NCBI GenBank assembly: GCA_964396185.1 | Contig: CAYNEI010000001.1 | Span: forward strand, 12,014 to 76,013 | DNA length: 64,000 nucleotides | Reading direction: 5' to 3' | Source: an uncultured Thermoplasmatales archaeon | GTDB taxonomy: Archaea > Thermoplasmatota > SW-10-69-26 | Shown here: positions 5,350 through 64,000 of the stretch, in pieces | Layout: every line of letters begins with the position of its first letter | Position numbering within the stretch: position 1 is the first letter of the stretch | Translations under genes and position numbers: made by a program | The notes under the pieces: generated by a model | Databases searched by the model: none | What the model was told of the DNA's origin: nothing | What the model saw: only the letters and a program-made list of their open reading frames with translations

Positions 5350-5357
5350 TAGTGGAC

Positions 5358-13878: not shown

Positions 13879-13912
13879 TGAGCCGAGCCCCGAGGCTAGT
13901 CCGCAGCACGGG

Positions 13913-24896: not shown

Positions 24897-25007
24897 GAGC
24901 GGGTCCAACCTACCCTTTGCAGGGCAAGCAGCCAGTAGCACAGGCCAGTGATAAGCTTTCCTTCCTAAGGTTATGCGAGACTCATAACGTGAATACATTG
25001 AATACCG

Positions 25008-42917: not shown

Positions 42918-42918
42918 C

Positions 42919-44608: not shown

Positions 44609-44683
<75 letters not shown>

Positions 44684-46146: not shown

Positions 46147-46168
46147 GCGCGCCTCTGGCTTCGTGGGC

Positions 46169-46930: not shown

Positions 46931-47032
46931 GGCCGCGCGCACGGGTGGTGCAGGGGCGGGGGGGGACCTATGCTCTTCGCCTGCGTAGCTTTATCAACCC
47001 ACAACCTGCTTGGACGCTCCCTGGGTGGTCCT

Positions 47033-48859
47033 GTGGCGAAACACTCCCTCGTCGATCTCTTCCAAGACTCTGCGCGAGCTCACGGCCAGACGCCCGCCAT
47101 GCGCTACAAGCGCCAGGGCACCTGGCACACCGTGACCTACGACGGCATGAAGCGGTTCGTCGAGGATCTGGCCGGCGGGTTGATCAGCCTCGGGCTAGAA
47201 CCCGGAGAGCGCGTGGGCATCTACTCGGCCAACACCCCGGAGTGGATCATCACCGACTACGCCGCGCTGCACTGCGCTGCCGTCACAGCCCCGGTCTACG
47301 ACACCCTCACGGTGGACCAGGCCGCCTACATCCTCAACGACGCCGAGGCCAAGGTCGTGTTCGTTGAGAACGAGGAGAAGCTCGAGGGCGTGCTCTCCAA
47401 GGCCAGCGAGCTCGAGCACCTGGAGCACATCGTCGTCATGGGCCCCGTGCCCGAGGGTTACGAGGCCAAGGACAACATCCTGGGCATGGATGCCCTCTAC
47501 ACCCGGGGACGCACCTACCTCGAGGAGCTCCCGGATCTGCTCCAAGACCGCGTCGATTCCATCGGCCCGAACGATCTGGCTTCGCTGGTCTACACGAGCG
47601 GCACCACCGGCAACCCCAAGGGTGTCATGCTCACCCACAAGAACTTCGCCTCCAACGTCGAGGCGACCCTGCAGGGCCTGCCTATCGCCGAGGAGACCCA
47701 CTTGGCCTTCCTGCCGCTTTGCCACTCGTTCGCGCGCACCGGAGACCAGTTCGTACCCTACTCCTCAGGCTCCACAGTCTGCTTCGCCGAGGGCCTGGAT
47801 GACCTGGCCAAGAACATGCAAGAGGTCCACCCCACCGTGATGCTCTCGGTCCCTCGCCTCTACGAGAAGATGTACGCCAAGATCAAGCAGAGCGTGGACG
47901 AGGGCAGCGCGCTCAAGCAGAAGATCTTCAACTGGTCCATCGAGGTGGGCCGCGAGGTGGCCCACAAGAAGGCCGACGGCGAGGACATCGGTGCTGGGCT
48001 CAGCTTCAAGCACAAGCTTGCCAGCAAGCTCGTGTTCGACAAGCTCAAGGAGACCACCGGCGGCAAGCTCAAGTTCTTCGTCAGCGGCGGGGCCGCGCTG
48101 AGCCCCGAGATCATGGAGTTCTTCGCGTCTGCTGATCTGTGGATCATGCAGGGCTACGGGCTCACCGAGACCAGCCCCGTGCTCACCGCCAACAACCCAG
48201 ACGACTACCGGTTCGGCTCCGTGGGCAAGGCGATCCCTGGTGTCGAGATCCGCATCGACGAGGAGGTCTGGGATGGAAGCGAGGGCGAGGGCGAGATCCA
48301 AGCCCGAGGCCCGAACATCACGCAAGGCTACTACAAATTGCCCGAAGAGACCGAGGCGCTGTTCACCGAGGACGGCTGGCTGCGCACGGGGGATGTGGGC
48401 CGGCTGGACGAGGATGGCTTCCTGTTCATCACGGACCGGCTCAAGCAGATCTTCAAAACCGCCTACGGCAAGTACATCGTGCCCAACAAGCTCGAAACCC
48501 TGCTCACCGACCAGCCCCACATCGCCCAAGCCGTCATCATCGGCGAGGACCGCAAGTACGTGGGCGCGCTCGTCGTGCCGGACTTCGAGCGCCTGGAACC
48601 CTGGGCCACCGAACAGGGCCTCAGCTTCGAGACGCGCGAGGATCTCGTGGCACTCGACGACGTTCACGAGCTCATCTGGGGCGAGGTGGAGAGGGTCAAC
48701 GAGGAGTTGGCGCGCTACGAGCAGATCAAGCGCATCGAGCTGCTCCACCGGGAGCTCGACCAGGAGAACGACGAGCTCACGCCCACCCTCAAGGTCAAGA
48801 TGCGCGTGGTCGAGGACAACTGGGCCGACGAGATCGAGGCGCTCTACCCTGATGCTTGA
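47033..48859 (+). CDS. long-chain-fatty-acid--CoA ligase (AMP-dependent synthetase, FadD-like)
   Basis: Homology begins near VAKHSLVDLFQDSARAHG (GTG 47033; alternative ATG 46970) in track ORF 46094..48859. AMP motif YTSGTTGNPKGVMLTHKN, then GYGLTETS, TGDVG, and a C-terminal ...LTPTLKVKMR block. A TATA-like TTTATCAA lies at 46990. Confidence 0.85.
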   Translation: MAKHSLVDLFQDSARAHGQTPAMRYKRQGTWHTVTYDGMKRFVEDLAGGLISLGLEPGERVGIYSANTPEWIITDYAALHCAAVTAPVYDTLTVDQAAYILNDAEAKVVFVENEEKLEGVLSKASELEHLEHIVVMGPVPEGYEAKDNILGMDALYTRGRTYLEELPDLLQDRVDSIGPNDLASLVYTSGTTGNPKGVMLTHKNFASNVEATLQGLPIAEETHLAFLPLCHSFARTGDQFVPYSSGSTVCFAEGLDDLAKNMQEVHPTVMLSVPRLYEKMYAKIKQSVDEGSALKQKIFNWSIEVGREVAHKKADGEDIGAGLSFKHKLASKLVFDKLKETTGGKLKFFVSGGAALSPEIMEFFASADLWIMQGYGLTETSPVLTANNPDDYRFGSVGKAIPGVEIRIDEEVWDGSEGEGEIQARGPNITQGYYKLPEETEALFTEDGWLRTGDVGRLDEDGFLFITDRLKQIFKTAYGKYIVPNKLETLLTDQPHIAQAVIIGEDRKYVGALVVPDFERLEPWATEQGLSFETREDLVALDDVHELIWGEVERVNEELARYEQIKRIELLHRELDQENDELTPTLKVKMRVVEDNWADEIEALYPDA

Positions 48860-49324
48860 GCGAGGCTGAGCGAGCTCAAGCTCGCCTCTGGGCAGGCGCG
48901 CAAATCCGATGATAGGCCATAGTCTGCAGGCGCTTCGCTACTCCGTGTGGGCAACCATCCTCGCGCCATCCTGGGAGATGCCCTCAACCCATGTGGTTGC
49001 GTCCGAACCTCCTAACCCAGACCAAGGTCTTCGAGGCGGCCGAGAGTCCGCGGAATCCCTGGTTCATCGACCGTGTGGAACCGCGCACCGAGCGACGGAG
49101 CCTAAGCATCTGGGTGCGCTGCAGGTTAGTACGTCCTTACCTAACGGGTGTGCACTGACAGACATAAGCCCTTGACCGAGAACCCTTCCACCGAGCTCAA
49201 CTGAGCGACGTTCCCTCCTGGTAGGCAACCCTCACTTCCACTGGTAGTAGTAGTTTTCAGTCAAGACCACATGAGACCAAAGGGAGCCGATAGGCTTAAC
49301 CCTCGACAACCTATTCGGGATTCC

Positions 49325-50020
49325 ATGGGAGAAGGGGCCCCTCAAGGTCGTCAGTTTTCGATTATGCTCGTGTTTGGACTCATCTCAGGATTCTTGGTCG
49401 CCGCAGCTCCGACTTCCGCTGAGGTCGTGGAGGAGTGCGACGAACAAATTGGGCTCATCATTACACCCATATCCGATGACTGCGCCGTGGCCGCATGCCA
49501 GGATCGACCCGGGATCGCGACACCGACAGCGACCGATGCCTGTTATATAGGAGTATGTAACGACCCCATCGGAGTGTTCACCCCCGGAAATTGTATGACG
49601 ACACAGTGTGAGCATGGAGGATTGGGCTACAGCGTACAACAGCATGATGGGTCCGATGATGGCCTCGATGTATGTGTGGCCACTCGCTGTTCCGACGGCT
49701 GGACCGGCATCGTCCTCGTAAGCGAGGTGCAAAGATACGACGCACTCTGCTTCTTCGTCTACACCTGCGATTGGGGAGAGACTGTTGACAGCTTCGCTGT
49801 TAAATATCGTTATGAAGCCACCAACCCACCCGGCACTTCCGAAGGTGAAACTCCCTGCACTCCACCCCCAGAGAACAAGGAACCCATCGACGAAGCACTC
49901 GAATTCATCAACGAGGGCGGCTGCTACGATCCACCGGTACTTGGGACATACTGCTCTGACACGGGAGTCCCCGTGTTTTGGCTCATCGAGACAGTGAAAG
50001 AATGGGCTGGGCAATCGTGA
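49325..50020 (+). CDS. Cys-rich secreted protein (14 Cys in the mature part), low-GC gene, no recognised family
   Basis: Signal MGEGAPQGRQFSIMLVFGLISGFLVAAAPTSA. Three C-x-D/E-x-x-G-x-x-x-TP repeats (CDEQIGLIITP, CQDRPGIATP, CNDPIGVFTP). Composition is clearly less GC-rich than neighbouring genes. The track ORF starts at 49271. Confidence 0.6.
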   Translation: MGEGAPQGRQFSIMLVFGLISGFLVAAAPTSAEVVEECDEQIGLIITPISDDCAVAACQDRPGIATPTATDACYIGVCNDPIGVFTPGNCMTTQCEHGGLGYSVQQHDGSDDGLDVCVATRCSDGWTGIVLVSEVQRYDALCFFVYTCDWGETVDSFAVKYRYEATNPPGTSEGETPCTPPPENKEPIDEALEFINEGGCYDPPVLGTYCSDTGVPVFWLIETVKEWAGQS

Positions 50021-50123: not shown

Positions 50124-51542
50124 ACACCCAGGCGGCGGCGCCTTCGAGGACAACTCCGGCAAGGACTGCAACCTGATCACGCCTGAGGCCCTCAAGGCCC
50201 ACACGACGCTCAGCGCCACCTACACCGACTCAGAGGTGAACGCAGCTTCGGCTACCTGGTCGAGGCCCACGACGTGGACATCTACACGGTCCCCCTCGCG
50301 GACACCCAGCAAGGGGTCACCGGGATCATCGGCGATCTGATCCCTGACGACCTGCCCGAGCCCATCGCCGGCCTGATCGAGGCAGCCCAAGAGGCCCTCG
50401 AGGACGGCGCCAGCGATGTCGAGGAGCTCACCGACCCGCTCGTCGAGGAAGCAGACAAGGCCAGCTCGCGCGCTGGACCGACCAAGGCGGCCACCCCAGA
50501 GCCCAACGCGGCCGACGACAACAGCCTCACCATGTCGGCGCTCACGGATGGAACCCGTTGCGACGAGGTGCTGGGTCTGACCCCACCTGGCGGCGAGTCC
50601 AAGAGCTACTACAACCTCATGGACGTCCGCATCGTGCAAGACCCCACGTTCCGCCAAGCCAACTTCGACGGCGTGACGGTCAACGCCCTCAAGGACCCCA
50701 CCGCGCTGGACGGCGACGGCCTGCCGGCCGAGAGCGACGAGCAGAGCCACAACCCATGGCACCCCGGCGCGTACAAGTTCGACGGGCTGCTCAACGTCTT
50801 CCTGGACGGCAACAGCAACGGCCAGTTCGACGCCTGCCCGGTCGACCAGGGCGACGGCCCGAGCCCGGACCTCTGCGTGGCTGATCTCGACTACGACATG
50901 TACGAGGCCAGCGGCGCGATCGGTGACAGCGCCCGCGACAAGAACATGGACGACCCCACGGGGCTCTACTTCGTGCTCAAGGTCACCGGCCCCGTGGCGA
51001 CCTACGACGTCGAGCGCTCAGGGGACCCCGATGAGACCCTGGCGGCTTCCGCGGACCGCACCGTCGTCATGAACGGCGATGGGCTCAACTGCATCGTGGG
51101 CACCACCACGGGGCTGCTCGACCTTGCCCCCGGCGATCTCTTCCGGGAGCTCAACAGCTTGAGCCCCAGTGCAACCGACGAGGACGTCGCCGCCGATCTG
51201 TGCGGCGAGGACGCCGACGACGTGGCCCTGATCAAGGACGCGTTCGCGACCCAGAGCCAGGCCGGCGGCACCCTCAACGACGCCAAGAGCGGCAAGCTGG
51301 CCTCTGCAGTCGGCTTCGTGAAGACCGGCTCCAACGCGGCTGCGCTCAACAACGGCCCGGGCGACGGGCTCACCGTCACCGCGGTGCTCAGCATCCAGGA
51401 CGGCGAGGTGCACTCGGACACGAGCGGGAACATCAACCTCGGCGACAACCCCGCCACGCTCGAGACGACCCTGTCCAACGGTGCTGACGTCTACGTCTGG
51501 ACCGACCACGAGCCCTTCGTGAGCACGGTCAGCGGGTCCTAA
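50124..51542 (+). pseudogene. decayed first member of the paralog array (N-terminal third lost, frameshifts, internal deletion); C-terminal 422 codons still open
   Basis: Frame 0 at 50124-50162 reads HPGGGAFEDNSGK. Frame +1 at 50164-50202 reads DCNLITPEALKAH (compare FGGAFEDGSNKPCNLIHPSDLADH in the last copy). Frame 0 resumes at 50247 with FGYLVEAHDVDIYT, a block that lies ~140 aa further downstream in intact copies. No signal peptide or SD. Confidence 0.65.
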
Positions 51543-51569
51543 GAAACGTGACGCGACTCGCAACCTCCT

Positions 51570-51610
51570 GGCCCGCGCGCCTCGCGCGCGGGCCAAGCTT
51601 CTTTTCTTAT
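51570..51610 (+). terminator. GC hairpin plus T-rich tail
   Basis: GGCCCGCGCGC-ctc-GCGCGCGGGCC (11-bp arms) followed by AAGCTTCTTTTCTTAT, 28 nt after the stop. Confidence 0.55.
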
Positions 51611-51838
51611 CCTGAGGACCAGGCAGCGGTAGCGCTGGCGAGTCAACCTCCGGCGCGCCGCACGCGCGCTGATTGCAGCGAAGCCGCGACCCGTCCCGGG
51701 TGCGCGCGCCACCGAGGTACCACCGCACCCGGTGTACCCGAAGCCTGGAACCCAACAACCACTAAATACCTCTTGCTCAATGTTTGTTTAACAGGCTGTT
51801 GTGGCTGTTCCAGCCGGCAGCGTGTGGAGGTTTGAAGC

Positions 51839-54286
51839 TTGAAGCGAGCACTCGTGATCCTTCTTGGAGCAACGATGGTGTTGGGGGTTCTTCCCTCGGC
51901 CATCGCTGAGCACAACGCCATCGGCGCGAAGGTAACTGCCGGGAACCCAGACCCTGTTCCCAGCGAGGAACCAGACATCCCCGACGCCATGCGGCCGATC
52001 TACCACGGCGGGGGCGCCCCTGCGCCGACGGTCGTGGACCCGGTCGCCTACCACGGAACCTACCCGCGCGTCTCACCCGAAGACCAGAGCGGTCTCGGGA
52101 TGGGCGAGTGGGTCGGGTACATCAACGGTGTCATCGAGTACGGCCCCAATCCCTTCGTCGCGGGAGCCTTCGACCAGGACAACGACCCGCTTTACCGCGT
52201 GTTCCCAGGGGACGACGCGTACTGCCAGAGCGTCGACGGCAAAGCCGACACCGGCGCTGACCCCGCGGACCCGAGCGACGACCCGTGCGCAGGGACCGGA
52301 CACGGTGTGAGCGTGGATCTCCCGACGAACCACCACCTCCAACAGCACCACATCGACGTGGTTCACCCAGATCGAGAGGGGAGTGGATTCATCTACCCAG
52401 GGTTGTACGATTTCTATGTCTACATCTTCGGGGAGGGCTCCAGCGACGTTCGCCCGGGCAGCGGTGCGTTCGACTACCTCGACGAGAGCCTGTGCGAGGA
52501 CCATCTCGCCAGCCTCAACATCGAGAACAACTTGGGTGACTGCACCCTCATCACCCCCACGGATCTCCAGAACCACGTCAGCAGCACCCTGACGGATGCC
52601 AACGGCGCGACCCAGGAGGCCGCATTCTGCGTGTTCGCACCCCGGTTCTACCAGGTCGGAGGCAGCGACGAGCCGCCGACGTGCCAGAACCGGATGGAGG
52701 ATTACGTCGAGCACACCGGGGCACCGACGTACCTCTCGAACAAGCCGGGCTGGTACGGTGGGAACTTCTTCATCGACCACATCGGCTCGACCGTTGCTGC
52801 CGAGGAAGTGGTTCTGAAGGGCGGTAGCCGCTCGGACATCTCGGCCGGCGGCATGTTCCATTACTACGTGAACCCCGTCCGACCGGTTGCTGAGCTTCGC
52901 TGTGCCTCACCACCTATCTCCACCACCGCCCCCGATAGCCTGGACACCGGGATCACCTTCGATGAAGCCAGCGGCACGTGGGCTGGAGACGGGGCCTTCG
53001 ATTACCTCGTCGAAGCCCACGACGTCGATGTCTACACGGCCATCGACTCCAACGCGGAGCGCCAATTCGTGGTCGACACTGTGAACGAGGTTCTCGATCA
53101 GGTTCCTGGCCTACCCCCCGAGGTCGGCCAACTCATCGATGACGCCATCGATGCAGCCGAGGCCCTGCTTGAGACCACGGACCCCATCGCAGACGCCGCC
53201 GACGAGCTCAGCGGACGGGCCTTCCCGTACACCCTGAACCGCGGGGAGCCCAACAGCGCCGATGACAGCTCGCACCTCTACACCCGGGATGCGACGGTCG
53301 ACATCGGTGTATGCGACGGCGGGCTCAACGACCCGGACAAGGTCGACGGTCTCTCGACCGTGTACTCGAACTACATCCAGGCCGACTACACCACGGGCCA
53401 GATCTTCAACGGCCTCGTGCTCCACGACTACACGGAGCTCGACGGGGAGGGCCTGCCCCGGGACTCCAACGAGCAAGGTTGGAACCCCTGGAACCCCAAC
53501 ACGTACACCTTCGACGGTGAGATCCTCGGCTTCCTGGACCACAACCCCAACGGCCAGCTCGACGCCTGCCCGTCTGGTGGCAACCAGATCGGCGCTGGCC
53601 AGGACCTCTGCGTGGCCCAGATCCGCTGGGACGTGAACAACCCCGACAGCGAGATCCAGGAGGCCAAAACGGAGACGTGGGCCCCCGCGAACGGGTTCGA
53701 CGACTTCACCGGGCTCTACTTCACCCTGAAGCTCACCGGCCCGGTGGCCACCTACGACCTGGAGAACACCCCAGACCAGAACGCCCAGGTCTTCTTCGAC
53801 CGGACCCGACTACTCGCCAGCGAGGGCCAGAACTGCATCGTGGGCATCAGCAAGGGCCTGCTCGACGACCCGGCCAACGACGCGCGGTTCCGCGAGCTCA
53901 TCGGTGCTGCGAGCGGTGAACAGACAGCCACCGACGGCCCCATCACGGACAAGCTGTGTGAGGGCGCTGACGGGGACGTCGCCTTCATCCGCGACGCGTT
54001 CGCCGACCAGGACAGCGCGGGGGACTTCGACGCCGCCTTCGAGTGGGTGAAGCTCTCCGCCACCCCCGAGGCCACCCACCCAGACACGGGCGATGGCCTC
54101 ACCTTCAACGCGGTGATCACCGTGGCCGAGACCGGCGACACGCTCACGGCCGGCAACCTTGAGCTAAGCGCGGCCACAGATGGCACCCCGACCCTGGAGA
54201 AGATCTGGACCGACGAAGATGGCGACAAGACGTTCGTGTGGACCGACCACGACGCCTTCGAGTCCACCCCAGACAACGCTGAGTGA
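51839..54286 (+). CDS. array paralog 2: ~800-aa acidic secreted protein, unknown family (EHN subtype)
   Basis: 815-aa ORF. TTG start 8 nt after GGAGG. Signal MKRALVILLGATMVLGVLPSAIA|EHN. Family blocks YPRVSPEDQSGLGMGEW, NKPGWYGG, FDYLVEAHDVDVYT, DHNPNGQLDACP, FTGLYFTLKLTGPVATYD, QNCIVGISKGLLDD, FVWTDHDAF. Confidence 0.85.
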   Translation: MKRALVILLGATMVLGVLPSAIAEHNAIGAKVTAGNPDPVPSEEPDIPDAMRPIYHGGGAPAPTVVDPVAYHGTYPRVSPEDQSGLGMGEWVGYINGVIEYGPNPFVAGAFDQDNDPLYRVFPGDDAYCQSVDGKADTGADPADPSDDPCAGTGHGVSVDLPTNHHLQQHHIDVVHPDREGSGFIYPGLYDFYVYIFGEGSSDVRPGSGAFDYLDESLCEDHLASLNIENNLGDCTLITPTDLQNHVSSTLTDANGATQEAAFCVFAPRFYQVGGSDEPPTCQNRMEDYVEHTGAPTYLSNKPGWYGGNFFIDHIGSTVAAEEVVLKGGSRSDISAGGMFHYYVNPVRPVAELRCASPPISTTAPDSLDTGITFDEASGTWAGDGAFDYLVEAHDVDVYTAIDSNAERQFVVDTVNEVLDQVPGLPPEVGQLIDDAIDAAEALLETTDPIADAADELSGRAFPYTLNRGEPNSADDSSHLYTRDATVDIGVCDGGLNDPDKVDGLSTVYSNYIQADYTTGQIFNGLVLHDYTELDGEGLPRDSNEQGWNPWNPNTYTFDGEILGFLDHNPNGQLDACPSGGNQIGAGQDLCVAQIRWDVNNPDSEIQEAKTETWAPANGFDDFTGLYFTLKLTGPVATYDLENTPDQNAQVFFDRTRLLASEGQNCIVGISKGLLDDPANDARFRELIGAASGEQTATDGPITDKLCEGADGDVAFIRDAFADQDSAGDFDAAFEWVKLSATPEATHPDTGDGLTFNAVITVAETGDTLTAGNLELSAATDGTPTLEKIWTDEDGDKTFVWTDHDAFESTPDNAE

Positions 54287-54315
54287 ACGCAGCGTCCGGC
54301 GTCCAACACCCACGT

Positions 54316-54360
54316 ACCCGCCCCGGGCCCCTCGGGCGCCCCGGGGCGGGTCTTCTTCTC
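54316..54360 (+). terminator. GC hairpin plus pyrimidine/T-rich tail
   Basis: ACCCGCCCCGGG / CCCGGGGCGGGT 12-bp arms (54316-54327 / 54340-54351), then CTTCTTCTCC. Confidence 0.55.
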
Positions 54361-54503
54361 CTCTCTCCGACGATCCGTTCACGTCCAGCTTTGGAGGGTG
54401 GAACCGAGGCTCAGGTCGCGGAAATGGCTAAGTAGCTGCAACTTAGTGACTCCTTAACACGGTCCCTTGGGTCCACCCACGGGGGCGTGAGGAGGTTGTC
54501 CAA

Positions 54504-56972
54504 ATGCGACGAGGCATCGCGCTCATCCTATGCTTGACGATGGTGCTGTGGGTCTTCCCCACAGCGCTTGCAGAGCACAACAACGCAGGGTACCGGATGA
54601 CGGTCGGTAACCCCGACCCGACCCCGACCGACGAGCCGGACATCCCGGACTCCGATCGGCCCGTTTTCCACGCAGGCGGCGATCCTGCTCCAGTTCTGGC
54701 GCGCGTGATCGCGTTCGAGGGAAGCTACCCGCGACTTTCGCCGGCCGACCAATCCGGCCTGGGGATGGGCGAGTGGATCGGCTACTTCAACGGGGTCGTC
54801 GAGTACATGGCCCCGCAGTTCGGGAGCCTTACCGGGGACGACCCGCTCTACCGGGTCAACTCCGGGGATGACGGGAATTGCCAGACACCCATGCAGAAAC
54901 TCGATACGGGCGCTGACCCGACGAACCCCAACGACGACCCGTGCTCGGGCGCGGGCCATGAATGGCAGTTCGACTTCCAGACGGCGAACTTCGTCCAACA
55001 ACACCACGCCGATCCGGTTAGCCCCGTCATCAGCGGAGGGGATCCCCTCAGTGGGTTCCTCCTCCCGGCGATGTACGACTTCTACGTCTACTTCTTCGGT
55101 GAGGGCTCCAGCGAGACCCGGCCCGGTGTTGGGACCCTGGACTACCTCGATGAGGACCTCTGCGACAAGCACCTTGCGAAGCTCGGGATCACCAACAACC
55201 TGGCTGACTGCACCCTGATCACGCCGGATGACCTCAACGGCCACCTTGGCCTCACGGATGCCAACGGTCAGGCCCAGGACGCGGCCATCTGCCAGTTCGC
55301 GCCCCGCTTCTTCCAGGTGGGCGGCGGCGACGAGCCCCCAACCTGCCAGAACTTCGTGGATAACTTCTACGACGAGTCCGGCCAAACGGGGTACATCACG
55401 AACAAGCCCGGTTGGTACGGCGGCCTCTGGTTCATCGACTACATGGGCTCGACGATCACCGCCGAGAACGTGGTCGTCAAGGAGGGTGTCCGCCAGGACA
55501 TCTCGGGCACGGGTCACTTCCACTTCTACGTGAACCCGGTCCGTCCTGATGCCGCGCTGCGCTGCGCCTCGCCCCCCATCTCCACCGACGCGCCTGACAG
55601 CCTGGATACCGGGACGGTGTTCGACGAGGAGACCGGGAGGTGGAGCGATGCCACGTTCGACTACCTCGTCGAGGCCCACGACGTCGATATGTACACGGGC
55701 GTGAAGGACCTGGGCGGGACCATCAACGACGCCGTGGATGAGGCCAACCGCGTCATCGGTGAGGTGCTCGACGAGATCCCCAACCTCCCCCCAGAGGTCG
55801 GCCAACTGATCGACGACACCATCGATGACGCCCAGAGTGCTGTGGACACTCTCCTAGAGACCACGGACCCCATCGCCGATGCGGCCAACGAGTTCAGCGG
55901 GCGGGCGTTCCCCTACACGCTCAACCGGGCCGAGCCCAACCACAACCTGGACGACTCGTACGCCTACTCGACGAGCGCCTCGGTCCAACTCGGCGTGTGC
56001 GACGGTGGCCTCCACGACCCCGCCGAGGTCGACGGCGTGGACACGAACTACTTCAACTACGTCCAGGCCGACTACACCACGGGCCAGGTCTTCAATGGCC
56101 TCGTCCTCCACGACTACACAGAGCTCGATGGAGAGGGCCTGCCCCGGGACTCCAACGAGCAAGGTTGGAACCCCTGGAACCCCAACACGTACACCTTCGA
56201 CGGTGAGATCCTCGGCTTCCTGGACCACAACCCCAACGGCCAGCTCGACGCCTGCCCGTCTGGTGGCAACCAGATCGGCGCTGGCCAGGACCTCTGCGTG
56301 GCCCAGATCCGCTGGGACGTGAACAACCCCGACAGCGAGATCCAGGAGGCCAAAACGGAGACGTGGGCCCCCGCGAACGGGTTCGACGACTTCACCGGGC
56401 TCTACTTCACCCTGAAGCTCACCGGCCCGGTAGCCACCTATGACCTGGAGAACACGCCCGACGAGGATCAGGCCACCTTCCTCGACCGGACCCGGGTGCT
56501 CTCCAGCGACGGCCAGAACTGCATCGTGGGCATCAGCAAGGGCCTGCTCGACGACCCGGCCACCGACGCCCGCTTCCGCACGCTGATCGGCGCTGGGAGC
56601 GGTGCACAGGGCCCGAACGCGGGCCCCATCACCGACGTTCTTTGCGAGGGTGCGGACGGGGACGTCGCGTTCATCAGCGACGCGTTCTTCGACCAGGGCA
56701 GTGCAGGCGACTTCGATGCTGCCTTCGAGTGGGTCAAGCTCTCCGCGACCCCTGAGGCCACCCACCCCGACATCGGGGATGGCCTCACGTTCAACGCGGT
56801 GATCACCGTTGCCGAGACCGGCGACACGCTCACGGCCGGCAACCTCGACTTGAGCAACGCCGAGCCCGGCGCGCCCACCCTCGAGAAGATCTGGTCTGAG
56901 GAGGACGGCGACATGACGTTCGTCTGGACCGACCACGACGCCTTCGAGTCCACCCCAGACAACGCTGAGTGA
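54504..56972 (+). CDS. array paralog 3: ~800-aa acidic secreted protein, unknown family (EHN subtype)
   Basis: 822-aa ORF. ATG 9 nt after GGAGG. Signal MRRGIALILCLTMVLWVFPTALA|EHN. Collinear with paralog 2 throughout. Confidence 0.85.
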   Translation: MRRGIALILCLTMVLWVFPTALAEHNNAGYRMTVGNPDPTPTDEPDIPDSDRPVFHAGGDPAPVLARVIAFEGSYPRLSPADQSGLGMGEWIGYFNGVVEYMAPQFGSLTGDDPLYRVNSGDDGNCQTPMQKLDTGADPTNPNDDPCSGAGHEWQFDFQTANFVQQHHADPVSPVISGGDPLSGFLLPAMYDFYVYFFGEGSSETRPGVGTLDYLDEDLCDKHLAKLGITNNLADCTLITPDDLNGHLGLTDANGQAQDAAICQFAPRFFQVGGGDEPPTCQNFVDNFYDESGQTGYITNKPGWYGGLWFIDYMGSTITAENVVVKEGVRQDISGTGHFHFYVNPVRPDAALRCASPPISTDAPDSLDTGTVFDEETGRWSDATFDYLVEAHDVDMYTGVKDLGGTINDAVDEANRVIGEVLDEIPNLPPEVGQLIDDTIDDAQSAVDTLLETTDPIADAANEFSGRAFPYTLNRAEPNHNLDDSYAYSTSASVQLGVCDGGLHDPAEVDGVDTNYFNYVQADYTTGQVFNGLVLHDYTELDGEGLPRDSNEQGWNPWNPNTYTFDGEILGFLDHNPNGQLDACPSGGNQIGAGQDLCVAQIRWDVNNPDSEIQEAKTETWAPANGFDDFTGLYFTLKLTGPVATYDLENTPDEDQATFLDRTRVLSSDGQNCIVGISKGLLDDPATDARFRTLIGAGSGAQGPNAGPITDVLCEGADGDVAFISDAFFDQGSAGDFDAAFEWVKLSATPEATHPDIGDGLTFNAVITVAETGDTLTAGNLDLSNAEPGAPTLEKIWSEEDGDMTFVWTDHDAFESTPDNAE

Positions 56973-57001
56973 ACGCAGCGTGCGGCGTCCAACAACCACG
57001 T

Positions 57002-57046
57002 ACCCGCCCCGGGCCCCTCGGGCGCCCCGGGGCGGGTCTTCCTCTT
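57002..57046 (+). terminator. GC hairpin plus pyrimidine/T-rich tail (same hairpin as 54316-54351)
   Basis: ACCCGCCCCGGG / CCCGGGGCGGGT arms at 57002-57013 / 57026-57037, then CTTCCTCTTCTCC. Confidence 0.55.
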
Positions 57047-57246
57047 CTCCATCCTTGCTTCCCTCTCTGCTCTAGGCGTGGGCCTCGTCCAGCCAACCGG
57101 TGGCGCGCCGCAGGCACGAACCGCTGGCGATCCCTGGGGAGTTAACCGGTGTCACTCAGATCGCTGCAGAGCCAACGGTTAAGCCATGAGGCCCCCATCG
57201 TGGGCCCGAGAGGCTGGCCACGCGCGTGGCCATGGGAGGCCCAAAG

Positions 57247-59577
57247 ATGCGAACCGGGATCGTGTTGCTCATCGGCTTGGTGACCCTGCTCAGTGGGCTC
57301 AGCCCAGCGCTTGCCCACCACAACGACGTGGGCGCGCGCTTCGCGGTTGGCAACCCGGACCCGGGGGTCTCGGACGAGCCGAACACGCGCGACGGGCTCC
57401 GGCCGGTCTACCACGCCGGAGGATCCCCGCCGACCCTGGCCTTCGTTGGCGACTACCCACGCCTCTCGCCGGCCGACCAGAGCGGGCTGGGCATGGGCGA
57501 CTGGATCGGCGTCATCGACGGCGTGGTCGAGACCTTCAGCGACGGGTTCGGCCAATGCGTGTTCAACCCGAGCTTCTTGGGCTGCAACCGCGACACGGAC
57601 CCCCTTTACCGCGCCAACCCCGCCAGCGACCACGGGGCCTGCCAGGGGGCCACCGAGCGTCTAGCGTCCGAGTGCGATGGGAGCGGGCACCCCTGGAAGC
57701 TGGATATCTGGCCAGGCGCGCGCGTGCAAGCCCAGCACTACGATGTTGTCGGCGGTGACGGGGCCGGGTTCCAGTTCCCAGGCAGCTACAGCTTCTATTT
57801 GTACCTCTTCGGCGACGGGAGCGGGGTGGCCGCCGGCCAGGGCACCTTCGACTACCTCGACCCTGACGAGCTTTGCGGCGAGACAACAGGCGCGGACACC
57901 TGCGCGCTGATCACTCCTGAGGATCTCAGCGACCACCTGCCCCCTGGCGCGGTGCCGGCGGTCTGCTTCTTCGCGCCCCAGTTCTTCCCGCTCACCCAGG
58001 CGTCCGATCTCGGCGAGTGCGCCCGGCAGAGCCGCTTCGACCAGTACATGGCGGACTCGGACTCCACCTTGTACCTAGCCAACAAGCCGGGCTGGTACGC
58101 CACGGCAGCCCTCGACGACCCCTTCGCGTCCACCCTCTCCTGGGCCAGCGTGCTCACCAAGGAGGGGGACCAGGACCACGTGTCCAACGTCTTCCACTTC
58201 TACGTCAACCCGGAGCCCCTGCCGTCCGAGAAATGGTGCGGGGCCCTGCCCGTGGCTACCTTGGCCACAGACAAGCTCGACACCGGTGTCCAGCCGGGGA
58301 TCGATGGGGGCTGGGTGGAGGGTGATCCCATCGCCTGGAACCTCCAGGGCCACGACCTGGACGTCTACACCAGCCCCACGAGCGATGCCAACGGGGCCCT
58401 CCAGCAAGCCGTCCAGGGCCTGCTCGACGAGCTGCCCACCCTGCCGCCTGGCCTCCAGGGGGTGGTGGACCAGGTTGGGGAGACGACCGTGGACACCCTG
58501 GACGAGGTGGGTCGCACCACCGACCCCTTCGTGGAGGCAACCCTCACGGCCGGCCAGCGCTTCGTAGCGATCAAGAGCGACGATGCCGGCCCCAACCACC
58601 CGCTGGACAACAGCCTCACGCTCTCGGCTCCCTCAGAGGGTCAGCAGTGCAGCTCGCTGGCGGGACTGGCTCGGGATGCCACCGGTCGCACCCACTTCTA
58701 CAACTACGTCGAGGCCGACATCCAGGGCATCACGCTCAAGGATCCCACGCACCTCGACGAGGACGGCCTTCCGGCCAAGGCCGACGAGCAGGGCTACAAC
58801 CCCTGGCACCCCCAGCAGTACACCTTCGGCGGCGAGCTCATCGTCTTCGACGACCGCAACGGCAACGTCCAGCGCGACGCCTGCCCCCAGGGCAACGATG
58901 CCCCAGACGAGTTCAGCCCGGACATCTGCGCGGCCCGGCTGCCGTGGGACCTCTCCAACCCAGAGGCCACCGCTGGCCAGGGCGCCAGCCTGGCCACCTT
59001 CGCGCGCGACAGGGGCTTCACCGACCCCACCGGCCTCTACTTCGTGCTCAACCTCACCGGCCGCCACCTCATCACCGACACCGAGCCCCCCACCGGCACC
59101 AGTGAGCTCGACCGCACCCAGCAGCGCAGCCGAGTGCTCATCACCGGCGGCCAACACTGCATCGTGGGCACCAGCAAGGGCCTGCTCGACGGGATCAGCG
59201 GCTCACGGTTGGCCACCACCCTAGGTCTGCCCAACCTCTCCGAGGCCGCGCTGCTGGACCACCTGTGCAGCGACGCCACGGGCGAGCGCATCCTGCTCGA
59301 GGACGGCTTCGAGGATCAGAGCCAGCTCGGCGAGATCGACGCCGGCATCGCCTGGACCAAGCTCTCGGCCACCCCAGATGTCTCCCTGAGCACCGACGAC
59401 GGGCTCACGCTCCATGCCCTTGTCACGGTGGAGGCCGACGGGGATGAGCTCACCCGGGGCAACCTGGAGCTGGGCACGGGCACCACGGCCACCCAGATCG
59501 CCACGTGGCAGGATGGCAGTGCCGTGAGCTACCGGTGGACGGACGTGGAGCTGTTCAGCTCGGAGCCGGCTGAGTAA
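57247..59577 (+). CDS. array paralog 4: acidic secreted protein, unknown family (HHN/THN subtype)
   Basis: ATG at 57247, 7 nt after GGGAGG (track ORF starts at 57226). Signal MRTGIVLLIGLVTLLSGLSPALA|HHN. 776 aa. It shares the family blocks but has subtype-specific WPGARVQAQHYD and YLYLFGDG. Confidence 0.8.
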   Translation: MRTGIVLLIGLVTLLSGLSPALAHHNDVGARFAVGNPDPGVSDEPNTRDGLRPVYHAGGSPPTLAFVGDYPRLSPADQSGLGMGDWIGVIDGVVETFSDGFGQCVFNPSFLGCNRDTDPLYRANPASDHGACQGATERLASECDGSGHPWKLDIWPGARVQAQHYDVVGGDGAGFQFPGSYSFYLYLFGDGSGVAAGQGTFDYLDPDELCGETTGADTCALITPEDLSDHLPPGAVPAVCFFAPQFFPLTQASDLGECARQSRFDQYMADSDSTLYLANKPGWYATAALDDPFASTLSWASVLTKEGDQDHVSNVFHFYVNPEPLPSEKWCGALPVATLATDKLDTGVQPGIDGGWVEGDPIAWNLQGHDLDVYTSPTSDANGALQQAVQGLLDELPTLPPGLQGVVDQVGETTVDTLDEVGRTTDPFVEATLTAGQRFVAIKSDDAGPNHPLDNSLTLSAPSEGQQCSSLAGLARDATGRTHFYNYVEADIQGITLKDPTHLDEDGLPAKADEQGYNPWHPQQYTFGGELIVFDDRNGNVQRDACPQGNDAPDEFSPDICAARLPWDLSNPEATAGQGASLATFARDRGFTDPTGLYFVLNLTGRHLITDTEPPTGTSELDRTQQRSRVLITGGQHCIVGTSKGLLDGISGSRLATTLGLPNLSEAALLDHLCSDATGERILLEDGFEDQSQLGEIDAGIAWTKLSATPDVSLSTDDGLTLHALVTVEADGDELTRGNLELGTGTTATQIATWQDGSAVSYRWTDVELFSSEPAE

Positions 59578-59661
59578 AGCGGGGAGCGTGGTTCGGTCAC
59601 AGCCACACCGCTTTGCGCTCCGAAAGACCTCGACGAGACCCTCGATAAAGGTCTTTAACCC

Positions 59662-59898
59662 ATGAGTCGTCTAAAGACCGATATGGCAGCTGGCGATCCA
59701 CTCCGGGAGGAGCTGATCGAGGATCTGGCGGCGCTTCCGGAGCACCACGTTCGAGAGGTCCACGATTTCATCCGGTTCCTCCGGTCGAAACAAGCTGAAC
59801 GGGATGACCCGGTTCTGGATGTTGCCGGCGTCTTCGACATGGAACCGTTGGACTCACGAGAGATCTATGAGACCCTCTACGGGGAGGACGCCGCCTGA
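59662..59898 (+). CDS. DUF2281/VapB-like antitoxin
   Basis: 78-aa ORF. LIEDLAALPEHHVREVHDFIRFLRSKQ matches the DUF2281 pattern (LP....v.dFv.FL). A PIN relic follows directly. Confidence 0.6.
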   Translation: MSRLKTDMAAGDPLREELIEDLAALPEHHVREVHDFIRFLRSKQAERDDPVLDVAGVFDMEPLDSREIYETLYGEDAA

Positions 59899-60346
59899 CA
59901 CCCGGATCGATTTCCGTGGACACGTAGGGCTGGCCCGCCCTCGGGAACAAGCGGGATGGCGACCACGAGCAAGTGGAAGCATTGTTCGGGCAACTTCACG
60001 ATGAAGGCGTCCCCCGACACACCTCTGACTACGTCCTCGATGAGCTGCTCTCCTTGCTGTTCCGACGCGTAGACCACGAGGGAGCCACCCGCTTCGTGGA
60101 GGGGATCCTGGAATCCGCGCACCGCGGCCACCTCAAGATCCATCGGGTGACTGCGGAGCGCTTCCGTGAAGCATGGGTCCTCCGGAAGCGCTACCAAGAC
60201 AAACCCTTGATCAGCTTCACCGATTTAACAAGCTTCGTACTCATTATCAGGAGCTCAAGCTTCCCCGGGTTCTCACGGATGATGGCCATTTCGAGCACGT
60301 CGATCTGGATGTCGAGCTCGTTCCTGGCGCGGCCTCACGCCGGTGA
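59895..60346 (+). pseudogene. decayed VapC (PIN-domain) toxin gene
   Basis: The frame overlapping the antitoxin stop reads ..GSISVDT, then TAG at 59925-59927, then GWPALGNKRDGDHEQVEALFGQL...DYVLDELLSLL...YQDKPLISFTDLTSFVLI. The conserved C-terminal LKLPRVLTDDGHFEHV is reached only after a frame shift near 60240. There is no ATG at the expected ATGA junction. Confidence 0.6.
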
Positions 60347-60491
60347 CGGCCCGCGCTTCTCTGTTGGCGAATCGGGCGCCAGGTAGGCGCCGAGTAACCG
60401 AAGCCCCCGTCACGGAAAGCATTAAACGTACATTGACCACTCCAAGCATGGGCTACGAGGCCGTAAGGCTAGGTCCAGTGGAGGTAGAGGC

Positions 60492-62921
60492 ATGAAGAAG
60501 ACGTTCATCATCTTGATCGGGCTGACGATGGTACTCACCACCGTCCCCGCCAGTTTCGCAGAGCACAACACCATCGGGTACGGCACCACCGCCGGCAGCC
60601 CGGATCCTGTCCCAAGCGACGAGCCGGATGTCCGAGATGGGGGTCTCCCCGTCTACCACGCCGGCGCGACCCCGCCGACTGGCAGCCCGACCGCCGCGTT
60701 CGAAGGGACCTACCCGCGCATCTCGCCGCCCGACCAGAGCGGTCTGGGCATGGGCGAGTGGATCGGGTTCATCGACGGTGTCGTCGAGTACCCGGGCCAG
60801 CTCGCCATCACGCCGACCAACCCCAACGACCCGCTCTACCGGGTCAGCCCCGGCGACGATGAGAACTGCGAGACCAATGAGCAGAAGCTGGATACGGGGG
60901 AGAACCCCGCCGACCCGAGCGACGATCCGTGCGCTGGAACCGACCACCGGACCGCGGTTCGCGTCCACTACGGTCACCTCTACCAGCAGCACAACATGGA
61001 TCATGTGAGCCCCGTTCTGAGCGATGACCCGCTCAGCGGGTTCCTGTTCCCTGGCTTGTACAACATGTACGTCTACCTGTTCGGGGATGGCACCAGCGAC
61101 CACCGCGCTGGCGAGGGTGCGTTCGACTACCTCCCAGCGAGCCTCTGCGACGACCACCTGGCCAAGCTCGGGATCACGAACAACCTGCCAGTTGAGGGCG
61201 ACCACGGCAAGTGCAGGCTCATCACTGCAGACGACCTGGAGAACCCGCTCGGGCTCGACGAGACCGACGCGCTGGGTACGCCGCAGAAGCCGAAGGTGTG
61301 CTCGTTCGCCCCCTGGTTCTTCGAGACCGGCAGCGACCCCAACCCCCCGGTCTGCCAGTTCGAGATCCCGGACTTCGTTGACAGCGAGGGAACGTTCTAC
61401 ATCTCGAACAAGCCCGGCTGGTACGACCCGATCCCGTACATCGACCAGTTCGGCAGCTTCGTCAACCACCCGGAAGGGATGACCGCCGACGGGATCCGCA
61501 GCGATCTGACCTACGGTCACTTCTCGTTCTACGTGAACCCGGTGCGACCCGCCGGTGCGCTGCGCTGCGCGGCCCCGCCGATCTCCACGTTCGCCGACGA
61601 CGCGCTGGACAGCGGCGTGAGCTTCGACGAGGAGACCGGGAAGTGGACCACCTCGGACGCTCCAGAGTTCGAGTACATCGTCGAGGCCTACGACATCGAC
61701 CTGTACACCGCCATCGATTCCACCCCGGCCCAGGAGCTTGTCCAACAAGTCCAGGACCTGATCCCCGATCTGCCCGAGCCGATCGAACAGCTCATCGAGG
61801 CAGTCGAGGACGAGGCGGACACGGTGCTCGATCCAGCCTCCGAGGCGAGTGGCCGGCTCTTCCCGTACACCCTGAACCGCGCAGAGCCGAACAGCGATGA
61901 GGACAACTCATTCACGCTCGAGCGCGCATCGGATGTGCCGCTGGGTGTCTGCCTTGACGGGCTCAACGACCCCGCCGAGGTCGATGGCGAATCGCCCAAC
62001 TTCCTGAACTACATCCAGGCCACCTACACCACAGGCCAGACTTTCAACGGCCTCGTGCTCCACGACTACACGGAGCTCGACGAGAGCGGCCTGCCCCGGG
62101 ATGCCGACGAGCAAGGCTACAACCCGTGGAACCCCAACACGTACTCGTTCAACGGCGACGTCATGGGTTTCCTGGACCGCAACCCCGATGGCGAGTTCAA
62201 CGGGTGCCCGACCTCGGGCAACCAGCCCACGCCGAGCCAGGACATCTGTGAGGCTTTGATCGTGTGGGACGTCAACAACGAGAACAGCGAGATCCAATCC
62301 GTCGAAACACCAACCTGGGCAGCCCAGAACGGCTGGGACTCCTTCACCGGGCTCTACTTCACCCTGAAGGTCACCGGCCCGGTGGCCACCTACGACGCCG
62401 AGAATACCCCGAACGAGAACCAGGCCGTGTTCGAGGATCGGACCCAGGTGCTCGAGAGCCCGGGCCAGAATTGCATCGTGGGTACCAGCAAGGGCCTACT
62501 CGACGACGCGACCACGGCCACGCGGTTCATGGAGATCATCGGCGCCGAGGGCCAGACCGCCAGCGAAGCGAACATCCTCGCGACCCTCTGCGGCGGCGCT
62601 GACGGGGACACCGCGTTGATCCGTGACGCGTTCTTCGACCAGAACGACGAGGGCGACTTCGCGGCCGCCTTCGAGTGGGTCAAGCTCGCCCCCACCCCCG
62701 AGGGCACCCACCCAGATACCGGCGACGGGCTCACGCTCAACGCCGTGCTCACGGTGGTCGCCGACGGGGACACCCTGACCGGGGACAACCTGGACCTGGC
62801 CTCGTTCGAGGAGCCCACGCCGACCCTCAAGAGCGTTTGGGAGGACGACGGGGACAAGACGTTCGTGTGGACCGACCACGACGCCTTCGACTCGGATCCC
62901 TACCAGCCCGACGAGGAGTGA
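60492..62921 (+). CDS. array paralog 5: ~800-aa acidic secreted protein, unknown family (EHN subtype)
   Basis: 809-aa ORF. ATG 9 nt after GGAGG. Signal MKKTFIILIGLTMVLTTVPASFA|EHN. All family blocks present. Confidence 0.85.
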   Translation: MKKTFIILIGLTMVLTTVPASFAEHNTIGYGTTAGSPDPVPSDEPDVRDGGLPVYHAGATPPTGSPTAAFEGTYPRISPPDQSGLGMGEWIGFIDGVVEYPGQLAITPTNPNDPLYRVSPGDDENCETNEQKLDTGENPADPSDDPCAGTDHRTAVRVHYGHLYQQHNMDHVSPVLSDDPLSGFLFPGLYNMYVYLFGDGTSDHRAGEGAFDYLPASLCDDHLAKLGITNNLPVEGDHGKCRLITADDLENPLGLDETDALGTPQKPKVCSFAPWFFETGSDPNPPVCQFEIPDFVDSEGTFYISNKPGWYDPIPYIDQFGSFVNHPEGMTADGIRSDLTYGHFSFYVNPVRPAGALRCAAPPISTFADDALDSGVSFDEETGKWTTSDAPEFEYIVEAYDIDLYTAIDSTPAQELVQQVQDLIPDLPEPIEQLIEAVEDEADTVLDPASEASGRLFPYTLNRAEPNSDEDNSFTLERASDVPLGVCLDGLNDPAEVDGESPNFLNYIQATYTTGQTFNGLVLHDYTELDESGLPRDADEQGYNPWNPNTYSFNGDVMGFLDRNPDGEFNGCPTSGNQPTPSQDICEALIVWDVNNENSEIQSVETPTWAAQNGWDSFTGLYFTLKVTGPVATYDAENTPNENQAVFEDRTQVLESPGQNCIVGTSKGLLDDATTATRFMEIIGAEGQTASEANILATLCGGADGDTALIRDAFFDQNDEGDFAAAFEWVKLAPTPEGTHPDTGDGLTLNAVLTVVADGDTLTGDNLDLASFEEPTPTLKSVWEDDGDKTFVWTDHDAFDSDPYQPDEE

Positions 62922-62940
62922 GGTTCCTCGCCACCTCTTC

Positions 62941-62985
62941 GGCCCGCGCCCGGTGCGCGGGCCGATCCCTTTTCTTCTTCTCTCG
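62941..62985 (+). terminator. GC hairpin plus T-rich tail
   Basis: GGCCCGCGC-ccggt-GCGCGGGCC (9-bp arms) followed by GATCCCTTTTCTTCTTCTC, 20 nt after the stop. Confidence 0.55.
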
Positions 62986-63205
62986 ATGCCGTGCCAGCGG
63001 TCGCTCTCATCACCGCGCCGGCAGGCGCGCCCCAGCGCGGCCACGGGCCGCGAACCCTCGGCGGGGATGCTCGTCATCCCCGAAACAGCAGTCCTCGCCG
63101 TGATACACCGCCCGGTTCACGAGAAAAGTTATAAACACTCAATGAGTCCCTCCTTTGTAGGCCCCGATATGGGAGTCGGAGCCACCCTACCATGGAGGTA
63201 TGGAT

Positions 63206-64000
63206 ATGAGGCAAGCAATCGTCGTTCTCGTAGGACTAGCCATGGTCCTCGGAACCGCGGGACTCGCGGCGGCCACGCACAACAACGTTGGTGCGCGGTT
63301 CATCGTCGGGACCCCGGATCCGATGCCCACGGTCGAGCCAGATACGTCAGATGACCTTCTTCCGATCTACCACTCAGCGGACCCATCCAACACGGATGTG
63401 TCCCAGGATCCGCCGTTCTTCGGAACGTACGAGCGGATCTCGCCTGCCGACCAGACCGGTCTCGGCCTGGGCGACTGGGTTGGGTACATCAACGGCGTCG
63501 TCGAGGCGCCAGGACCAGGGTTCCCGCACTGCGCGGCATTCAACCCTGACTTCGCCTGCAACCACGTCAACGACCCGCTCTACCGTGTCAACCCATCCGC
63601 CAGCGATGAGAACACGGAGTGCGAGAGCATCGAGGACAACCAGAAGCTCGGCGAAGATGAAACCGACCCGAACGACGATCCATGCGCAGGCGAGGGCCAC
63701 TTCATGCAGGTGGACATCTGGCCGGGCGTGCGCGTCCAGCCCCAGCACTTCGACGAGACCGGAGGCGCTACTGGATCACCGGACAACAGCGGCACCATCC
63801 TGCCGGGCCTGTACGGCTTCTACCTCTACCTGTTCGGCGACGGCATCGGCGTTGCCGCTGGCCAAGGGAGCTTCGACTACCTGCCGACCAACCTCTGTGA
63901 GGTGGGCGCCGGCTTCGGCGGTGCGTTCGAAGACGGTTCGAACAAGCCATGCAACCTGATCCACCCCTCAGACTTGGCTGACCACGATGATCGAACGCAT
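63206..64000 (+). CDS. array paralog 6 (5' partial; runs off the window): acidic secreted protein, HHN/THN subtype
   Basis: Not in the ORF track because the frame stays open to the window end. ATG at 63206, 8 nt after GGAGG. Hand translation: MRQAIVVLVGLAMVLGTAGLAAA|THNNVGARFIVGTPDPMP...YERISPADQTGLGLGDWVGYINGVVE...DPLYRVNP...WPGVRVQPQHFD...YLYLFGDG...FDYLPTNLC. A TATA-like TTATAAA lies at 63129. Confidence 0.8.
   Translation, partial: MRQAIVVLVGLAMVLGTAGLAAATHNNVGARFIVGTPDPMPTVEPDTSDDLLPIYHSADPSNTDVSQDPPFFGTYERISPADQTGLGLGDWVGYINGVVEAPGPGFPHCAAFNPDFACNHVNDPLYRVNPSASDENTECESIEDNQKLGEDETDPNDDPCAGEGHFMQVDIWPGVRVQPQHFDETGGATGSPDNSGTILPGLYGFYLYLFGDGIGVAAGQGSFDYLPTNLCEVGAGFGGAFEDGSNKPCNLIHPSDLADHDDRTH

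Follow-up and report, generated by a model that had tools for sequence, protein, structure and literature searches.

A tandem array of exported, cysteine-paired proteins outside known families in an uncultured Thermoplasmatota-type archaeon

What kind of protein does an archaeon keep in at least nine diverged full copies on a single contig? The question is raised by a stretch of 64,000 nucleotides (the window; contig CAYNEI010000001.1, assembly GCA_964396185.1) from an uncultured Thermoplasmatales archaeon, at the end of which an earlier reading of the letters (the original prediction) had described a tandem array of genes for large secreted proteins of no recognizable family. In the present work, we analyze this array by means of homology searches, structure prediction and comparison with related loci. 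As judged from these comparisons, the array belongs to a lineage-restricted multigene family of an uncultured Thermoplasmatota-type archaeon with an acid-shifted proteome. Its products are predicted to be exported and disulfide-bonded, and we tentatively regard them as a repertoire of extracellular binding or catalytic proteins.

The family occupies positions 50134-64000 of the forward strand, on which all six copies in the window lie. The open reading frame (ORF) listing, the six-frame translation and tblastn agree on a head-to-tail series of one decayed copy, four intact ones and the start of a sixth, which is the layout originally proposed, and the motif blocks listed at that time are present in the paralogue alignments. 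The first copy, c1, survives in two pieces that differ in frame. Piece A (50134-50208) covers roughly residues 226-248 of a full-length copy (GAFEDNSGKDCNLITPEAL); it is 65% identical across 23 aa to the family protein P0004 (tblastn). Piece B (50235-51542) holds the C-terminal ~430 codons, from residue ~383 to the end; it matches this part of all paralogues with tblastn E values of 1e-58 to 1e-79, and its ORF 50274-51542 is called as the 422-aa protein P0009. Missing from c1 are the signal peptide, ~200 codons at the beginning and ~135 codons in the interior. Since it has neither a signal peptide nor an N-terminal lobe, it is a decayed copy.

The intact copies are c2 (51839-54286, 815 aa, with a TTG start), c3 (54504-56972, 822 aa, also called P0001), c4 (57247-59577, 776 aa, P0003) and c5 (60492-62921, 809 aa). 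They are followed by the first 265 codons of c6 (63206-64000), which is cut at the window edge and whose full product is the 831-aa P0004, called from an internal start. Pairwise identities in the array are 37-72%, with tblastn E values from 1e-45 down to 0, while tblastn finds no additional copy in positions 1-50000 of the window. Positions 57012-62072 recur at 100% identity in an independent assembly of a Sequence Read Archive (SRA) run (Logan contig L001), and this part is thus not an assembly artefact. It had also been suggested that the array might continue past position 64000. The family does continue on the same 291,347-bp contig with four further copies, P0005 (838 aa), P0006 (839 aa), P0007 (817 aa) and P0008 (708 aa), which may adjoin c6. 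The source genome has at least nine full copies in addition to the c1 remnant, and the array spans at least 14 kb and probably over 25 kb.

The N-termini have the features of proteins exported by Sec and processed by signal peptidase I. A K/R-containing start (n-region) is followed by a hydrophobic core of 12-15 residues (h-region), by small residues at -3 and -1 in the form A-x-A (rarely G or S), and then by X-His-Asn. This layout of signal peptide and X-His-Asn was found in 39 of the 40 aligned members. The residue X, which precedes an invariant His-Asn-(Ser)-x-Gly, is variable and can be E, H, T, S, G, M or N. The signal peptides of the window copies all have exactly 23 residues: 51839-51907 in c2 (ending in SAIA before EHN), 54504-54572 in c3, 57247-57315 in c4 (PALA before HHN), 60492-60560 in c5 and 63206-63274 in c6 (LAAA before THN). 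None of the signal peptides examined contains a twin-arginine motif. According to the hydropathy analysis there is no second hydrophobic segment, as no Kyte-Doolittle window exceeds 1.6 outside residues 1-25. A membrane or envelope anchor is likewise not seen, that is, no C-terminal transmembrane segment, PGF-CTERM or conserved lipobox, and the C-termini are acidic tails. We infer Sec export with cleavage after A-x-A, and the sequences are consistent with proteins that are released or held non-covalently, as was originally proposed.

Twelve cysteines are invariant across all 40 aligned sequences, and in 39 of 39 members the mature part contains an even number of cysteines (12, 14, 16, 18, 20 or 22). 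Such pairing is what fully disulfide-bonded extracellular proteins look like, and disulfides are predicted here as well. The earlier description of an exported, cysteine-paired family is thus borne out.

The sequences also differ from those of the presumed surface proteins elsewhere in the window in their N-glycosylation sites. The ten copies of the source genome together contain 6 N-x-S/T sequons, compared to 40.5 expected from composition-preserving shuffles, which corresponds to a depletion of about 7-fold; the mirror motif S/T-x-N occurs 31 times in the same ten copies. No sequon at all is present in c2, c3, c5, c6, P0007 and P0008. By contrast, a neighboring 829-aa protein (6837-9326, +) has 10 sequons where 1.9 are expected, and a 2453-aa surface protein (17790-25151, -) has 19 where 15.7 are expected. 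On the basis of these two counts the source organism appears to use N-glycosylation, and the array family appears to be kept free of N-glycans.

The acidity of the proteins, in contrast, turns out not to be specific. The isoelectric points of the family are 4.05-4.18, and "very acidic" had been listed among its features, but cytoplasmic proteins are acidic too (PurL 4.45, pyruvate kinase 4.67, acyl-CoA synthetase 4.65). Acidity is therefore a trait of the proteome and not of the family, and it would be consistent with a salt-in halophile.

It was then of interest whether the family belongs to any known kind. With the four intact window copies and the 40 members as queries, Pfam gave nothing near its curated cut-offs, the best E values being 0.013-0.04 and far below the gathering scores. 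NCBIfam, PADLOC and PHROGs gave no match for the four intact copies and a subset of the members, and among the PDB sequences there were 0 matches at E<=10, both by phmmer and by profile hmmsearch.

For the structure, c3 was used as the AlphaFold2 query. An alignment of only 7 close paralogues led to an unusable model (predicted local distance difference test, pLDDT, of 32.7), while the 40-sequence alignment raised the pLDDT to 75.8, with a predicted template modeling (pTM) score of 0.72. The resulting model consists of a beta-rich N-lobe (~residues 40-400), a low-confidence helical segment (404-468) and a high-confidence beta-rich C-lobe (~470-820) in which many blocks exceed 90. Foldseek found no match to this model at E<=0.001, neither in the PDB (best E=0.28) nor in BFVD (best E=0.09), and the TM-scores of the best rows, ~0.05-0.15, are at noise level. 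We have also considered an internal duplication relating the two lobes, which was rejected on the basis of an hhalign probability of 0.1%. Measured against the PDB and BFVD, the two-lobe architecture of the model is provisionally a new fold. By elimination, the family is outside the known kinds as a protein family and as a fold, since none of the tested defining features of a known family is found in it; the original claim of no known family has withstood all these searches.

The family is also very rare. A word-indexed search of 5.8 billion proteins returned six proteins, all of them on the source contig, and the 40-sequence profile returned the same six, although sequences of this composition seem to overload the word index. 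With a paralogue profile, HMMER was run exhaustively over 1.84 billion cluster representatives and yielded 44 from the family, of which the nine closest are all on the source contig (c1-c4, c6 = P0004, and P0005-P0008). In the scanned library, clusters at 50% identity are represented by a single protein each; c5 is 56-58% identical to c2/c3 and accordingly not listed separately. The remaining ~35 representatives are 850-1030 aa long and 21-29% identical to c3. Apart from the contig studied here, the representatives come from one Thermoplasmatales metagenome-assembled genome (MAG) and from a handful of SRA contigs. When one genome per GTDB species was scanned, relatives turned up in a single MAG, entitled "uncultured Thermoplasmatales archaeon binchicken_co207_141", and the same kind of genome scan with the close-clade profile found none. 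The title of this sole relative in the genome collection fits the assignment to Thermoplasmatota that had been guessed from the letters. The suggested origin in Marine Group II or marine archaea is doubtful, as two scans of JGI metagenomes, covering 241 million records with both clades as query, gave zero relatives.

Where the family does occur elsewhere, it is mostly arrayed, as the original prediction had supposed. The binchicken_co207_141 MAG contains one locus with at least five tandem copies (L003), one with two (L004) and one with a solo 1032-aa copy, P0038 (L005, 10001-13099). Two SRA-derived contigs each carry a partial copy in tandem with two others, of 871 and 868 aa in L006 and of 907 and 908 aa in L007. 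From the scans of representatives, GTDB and JGI, taken together with these loci, we conclude that the family is rare and that tandem arraying is its normal state. As for the solo locus, P0038 has an insertion of ~150 residues between the lobes relative to other members, and two neighboring ORFs of 653 and 684 aa there are without a Pfam match.

The position of the array is conserved. In the window the order is a cinA-like gene (46169-46942, -; Pfam), a long-chain acyl-CoA synthetase gene (ACS; ~47096-48859, +; Pfam AMP-binding) and then the array, the two genes serving as syntenic anchors. At the L003 locus, ACS (-) and cinA (+) come after the array and are 36% and 56% identical, respectively, to the window genes; at L007, the gene after the array is a convergent ACS with 74% identity to its window counterpart (all tblastn). 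Relative to the anchor genes, the array is inverted in L003 and L007 compared to the window. These alignments indicate that the array is kept at one chromosomal position beside the ACS gene in at least three genomes. A Cys-rich partner gene, on the other hand, is not part of this arrangement. Directly upstream of the array, a non-family gene (49271-50020, +) encodes an exported protein of 249 aa with 14 Cys and no family match; the gene lies in a stretch of lower GC (0.597), and it had been asked whether arrays always follow such a gene. No homologue of it was found beside the arrays at the five other loci, L003-L007, and a conserved partner of this type was consequently rejected.

The copies of the window genome are only 25-27% identical to every copy elsewhere, compared to 74% identity between the adjacent ACS and its L007 counterpart. 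This low identity would mean either that the array evolves much faster than its neighbors, or that old paralogous clades have been differentially retained.

Within the source genome, two clades can be distinguished, A (c2, c3, c5) and B (c4, c6, P0005-P0008). This grouping does not coincide with the proposed EHN and HHN/THN subtypes, since P0005 and P0006 start with EHN and yet group with c4 and c6 (the WPPVR-Q-H type). Nor do the subtypes alternate strictly, the order from c2 to c6 being A-A-B-A-B. Furthermore, c4 and c6 each have closer relatives elsewhere in the clade: they are 44% identical to one another and 45-48% to P0006/P0007 (c4-P0006 45%, c6-P0006 48%). In view of the gene order and these clade-B identities, the old duplication of a two-gene unit that had been proposed is not supported.

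In 100-nt blocks, c2 and c3 are 48-76% identical across the 5' 1.6 kb, compared to 79-100% across the 3' ~0.9 kb including ~70 nt of spacer, and 300 nt of this tract are nearly identical. The c2-c3 and c3-c4 spacers show only 2 differences in their first 69 nt. On the c2 side the tract runs approximately from 53440 to 54356 (+), i.e., the 3' ~850 nt of the gene and ~70 nt beyond the stop. The block pattern identifies it as a gene conversion or a recent partial duplication. A division into a variable N-domain and a conserved C-domain was considered and rejected: the mean pairwise identities of the N-lobe and the C-lobe are 45% and 43%, and the 3' conversion tract occurs only in c2/c3. Judged by these traces, the family grows and shrinks via tandem duplication, gene conversion (c2/c3) and decay (c1).

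The spacers are 217-296 nt long and hold predicted expression signals only, with the exception of the 915 nt between c4 and c5. The intact copies have GGAGG 12-13 nt upstream of the start (13 nt for c2) and an A/T-rich box 50-76 nt upstream. Downstream of c1, c2, c3 and c5 there is a GC-rich hairpin with a T/C-rich run, as in the terminator-like structures after c1 (51569-51595, +; 12 pairs, then a T-rich run) and after c5 (62939-62965, +; 11 pairs, then a T-rich run). By these pattern matches, each array gene looks like its own transcription unit. The length of the c4-c5 spacer is due to an inserted pair of small non-family genes (59662-60386, +), consisting of a 78-aa ORF (59662-59898) that is DUF2281-like (E=2.4e-5, just under the Pfam cut-off) and a 137-aa ORF (59973-60386) without a Pfam match. 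Both are also called on Logan contig L001, and together they look like a small pair of the toxin-antitoxin type.

We now consider what these proteins might do. Our best explanation, which we hold tentatively and at somewhat less than even confidence, is that the paralogues form a diversified extracellular repertoire for binding or catalysis, in which the N-lobe would carry a conserved His/Asp site. In this scenario, the proteins would cross Sec unfolded and be cleaved by signal peptidase I, and outside the cell they would be oxidized to about six disulfides. Selection against N-x-S/T sequons would keep them N-glycan-free, and they would act extracellularly, released or loosely bound. The site in the N-lobe would be His/Asp-based and possibly metal-dependent, formed by H25-N26, H56, D82-Q83, D113, H152, N344 and D393/D395, and the paralogues would differ in the external substrates, ligands or targets that they cover.

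Four observations make us favor this explanation. First, polar residues are fixed across clades that are only 25% identical. Those kept in both clades include H25, N26, H56, R77, D82, Q83, D113, H152, N344, D393 and D395 in the N-lobe, and D537, D574, D596, D605, N608, S678 and D726 in the C-lobe. Second, the conservation is not limited to one domain. Third, there is no anchor and no partner gene. Fourth, glycans are avoided. As a separate observation, all members share the stretch L-D-x-(D/E)-G-L-P-x-x-x-(D/E)-(E/T) followed by N-P-W (c3 residues ~540-560), which we take to resemble acidic calcium-binding loops of the thrombospondin type 3 kind; Pfam did not detect such a loop.

It is important to point out that several results weigh against a binding or catalytic repertoire of this kind. 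No homology ties the family to any activity in the library and PDB searches. Residues 16-37 of the model, which include His25, have a pLDDT below 50, and that H25, H56 and H152 come close to each other is a conjecture. The conserved His and Asp residues could instead be structural, for example in cation binding by a halophilic protein. The sequon depletion is strong only in the source-genome clade, the distant clade being mildly and unevenly depleted (88 compared to 132 expected). The cleavage of the signal peptide is predicted from the A-x-A rule, the promoter and terminator calls are pattern matches only, and the expression of the copies is a prediction; the terminator scan as a whole gave no excess of sites over shuffled sequence.

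A more specific version of this scenario was also considered, to which we assign a small probability. Here, the family would be a new-fold class of extracellular metalloproteins in which the free N-terminus and His2 of the X-His-Asn freed by signal-peptide cleavage, together with H56 and H152, form a Cu or Ni center, the products being a tandem-encoded repertoire of unglycosylated, disulfide-locked enzymes acting oxidatively or hydrolytically on different external polymers, analogous but unrelated to the lytic polysaccharide monooxygenases (LPMOs). A mature N-terminus and a His bind metal in the LPMO "histidine brace", in the hook of nickel superoxide dismutase and in the amino-terminal copper and nickel (ATCUN) or Xaa-His copper motifs. 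The family resembles these binders in having a nearly invariant His right after the signal-peptidase site, with H56 and H152 in the N-lobe. The LPMO brace, however, consists of a His as mature residue 1, a second His and an axial Tyr/Phe on an immunoglobulin (Ig)-like beta-sandwich, while the His of the family is at the predicted mature position 2, and the model has no fold match to LPMOs or copper proteins in the PDB.

The alternative that survives best, although we consider it rather less probable than not, perhaps one chance among several, is a variable cell-surface coat, in which the paralogues would be non-covalently bound alternative surface types that allow escape from viruses or other surface-recognizing agents. 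Bacterial variable-surface-protein loci are tandem families that evolve by duplication, gene conversion and decay, and the array shares with them the head-to-tail paralogues, individual expression signals, the c2/c3 conversion tract, the c1 remnant and the lineage-specific clades. Many paralogues at one locus, each predicted to be transcribed individually, and their birth-and-death evolution with gene conversion would suit a coat. The divergence is extreme relative to the neighboring housekeeping gene (25-27% compared to 74%), although the 25% may be due to ancient paralogy instead of rapid evolution. The region also carries genes of the toxin-antitoxin and abortive-infection type, namely AbiEii/AbiEi (42132-43749) and the DUF2281-like pair in the array. 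On the other hand, the family lacks an anchor, PGF-CTERM, lipobox or conserved partner gene. No switching machinery is visible in the array (invertible promoters, repeats or silent cassettes), and the variation is not focused in one exposed domain, as conservation is even across the two lobes. Finally, many polar residues are invariant between clades 25% identical, which suits a site better than a mere coat.

The next possibility is a narrower form of the binding or catalytic repertoire, namely extracellular degradative enzymes acting on protein or lipid substrates and feeding peptide or fatty-acid catabolism. It derives from the genomic neighborhoods: the two-copy array of L004 is set among three Peptidase_S15 genes, and the main array abuts the long-chain ACS in three genomes; conserved His, Asp and Ser residues are also available. 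These neighbors, however, vary by locus and are not co-oriented, the array being inverted relative to ACS in L003 and L007. The family has no likeness to any hydrolase family or fold, and metabolic exo-enzymes rarely need nine or more paralogues, so that we regard this option as improbable. In L004, the Peptidase_S15 (X-Pro dipeptidyl-peptidase) genes are located at 2938-5742, 13006-14991 and 15108-16781, and one of them carries an N-terminal extension of ~400 aa.

Still less probable is an S-layer or main structural family of the envelope, of which one or several paralogues would self-assemble into an outer lattice. Archaeal S-layer proteins are usually N-glycosylated and are anchored via a C-terminal transmembrane segment, a PGF-CTERM lipid or a partner protein; examples of such surface glycoproteins are the Haloferax S-layer glycoprotein, Sulfolobus SlaA and the Methanosarcina DUF1608 proteins, and some archaea have several paralogues. 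The array proteins are similar to these in being large (~800 aa), exported, acidic and, in the model, beta-rich with two lobes, and the large gene dosage would also fit. Glycan-free lattice contacts could even account for the avoidance of sequons. On the other hand, the ~7-fold depletion is opposite to what is usual for S-layer proteins, there is neither an anchor nor a conserved partner, and no sequence similarity or fold match to solved S-layer proteins was found (Foldseek, PDB). At least nine tandem paralogues at 35-72% identity would be unusual for a lattice protein, and the 829-aa and 2453-aa proteins, with their C-terminal hydrophobic segments and sequons at or above expectation, are better candidates for surface glycoproteins in the window.

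Equally slight is the chance that the proteins are secreted antagonistic effectors, either large protein toxins or agents akin to archaeocins, whose diversity an arms race with competitors would have driven: they are exported, predicted to be disulfide-rich and unglycosylated, fast-diverging, lineage-specific and in tandem, and Vip3 and pore-forming toxins appear among the best Foldseek rows. These rows are, however, non-significant and at noise level (E 0.3-1.8, TM ~0.05), no toxin or delivery domain was found by Pfam and the other libraries, and, unlike in polymorphic toxin/immunity systems, the array has no adjacent cognate immunity gene, the sole inserted small genes being the DUF2281-like pair between c4 and c5.

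As for the rest of the window, the AbiEii toxin and AbiEi antitoxin genes are on the reverse strand in a stretch of lower GC (0.60 compared to ~0.67), ~0.9 kb from a tRNA-Glu gene (44609-44683, -), and a variable island comprising the array may have its edge here. Rfam identifies only 3 tRNAs in the window, none of them inside the array. Next to the array, a mechanical ORF of 921 aa (46094-48859, +) is over-extended; the true start of ACS is near 47096, and the upstream part of the ORF overlaps the cinA-like gene on the opposite strand. The 829-aa exported protein, for which Pfam gave no match, contains proline-rich repeats (PDEPVPHDPLPPG...) and, close to the C-terminus, a hydrophobic segment with a short basic tail behind it. 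From these features it is likely an anchored surface glycoprotein. The acidic 2453-aa protein carries a hydrophobic anchor at the C-terminus, its only matches, to Filamin and Ig-like domains, are faint, and its gene is flanked by two paralogous archaeal ATPase genes (each PF01637 + DUF234) at 14264-15673 (+) and 25342-26733 (-).

Taken as a family, the array proteins look new by sequence and, provisionally, by fold; this newness refers to the family and the fold and not to the function. The weight of the finding is tempered by the fact that MAGs of novel lineages often contain orphan secreted families. What lifts it above a routine hypothetical cluster is the combination of a conserved array and synteny with X-His-Asn, cysteine pairing and sequon avoidance. 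The invariant N-terminal X-His-Asn, the strict pairing of the cysteines and the strong avoidance of N-glycosylation sites are also testable handles, and the sequon contrast with neighboring surface proteins offers a way, from sequence data, to sort glycosylated from deliberately unglycosylated exoproteins in uncultured archaea. If the present interpretation is true, a large and conserved type of extracellular protein that is structurally unclassified has been amplified to at least nine copies by one rare archaeal lineage and kept at one locus across genomes. The amplification and retention at one locus would then mean that the family is central to how these organisms deal with their surroundings, be it nutrients, viruses or competitors.

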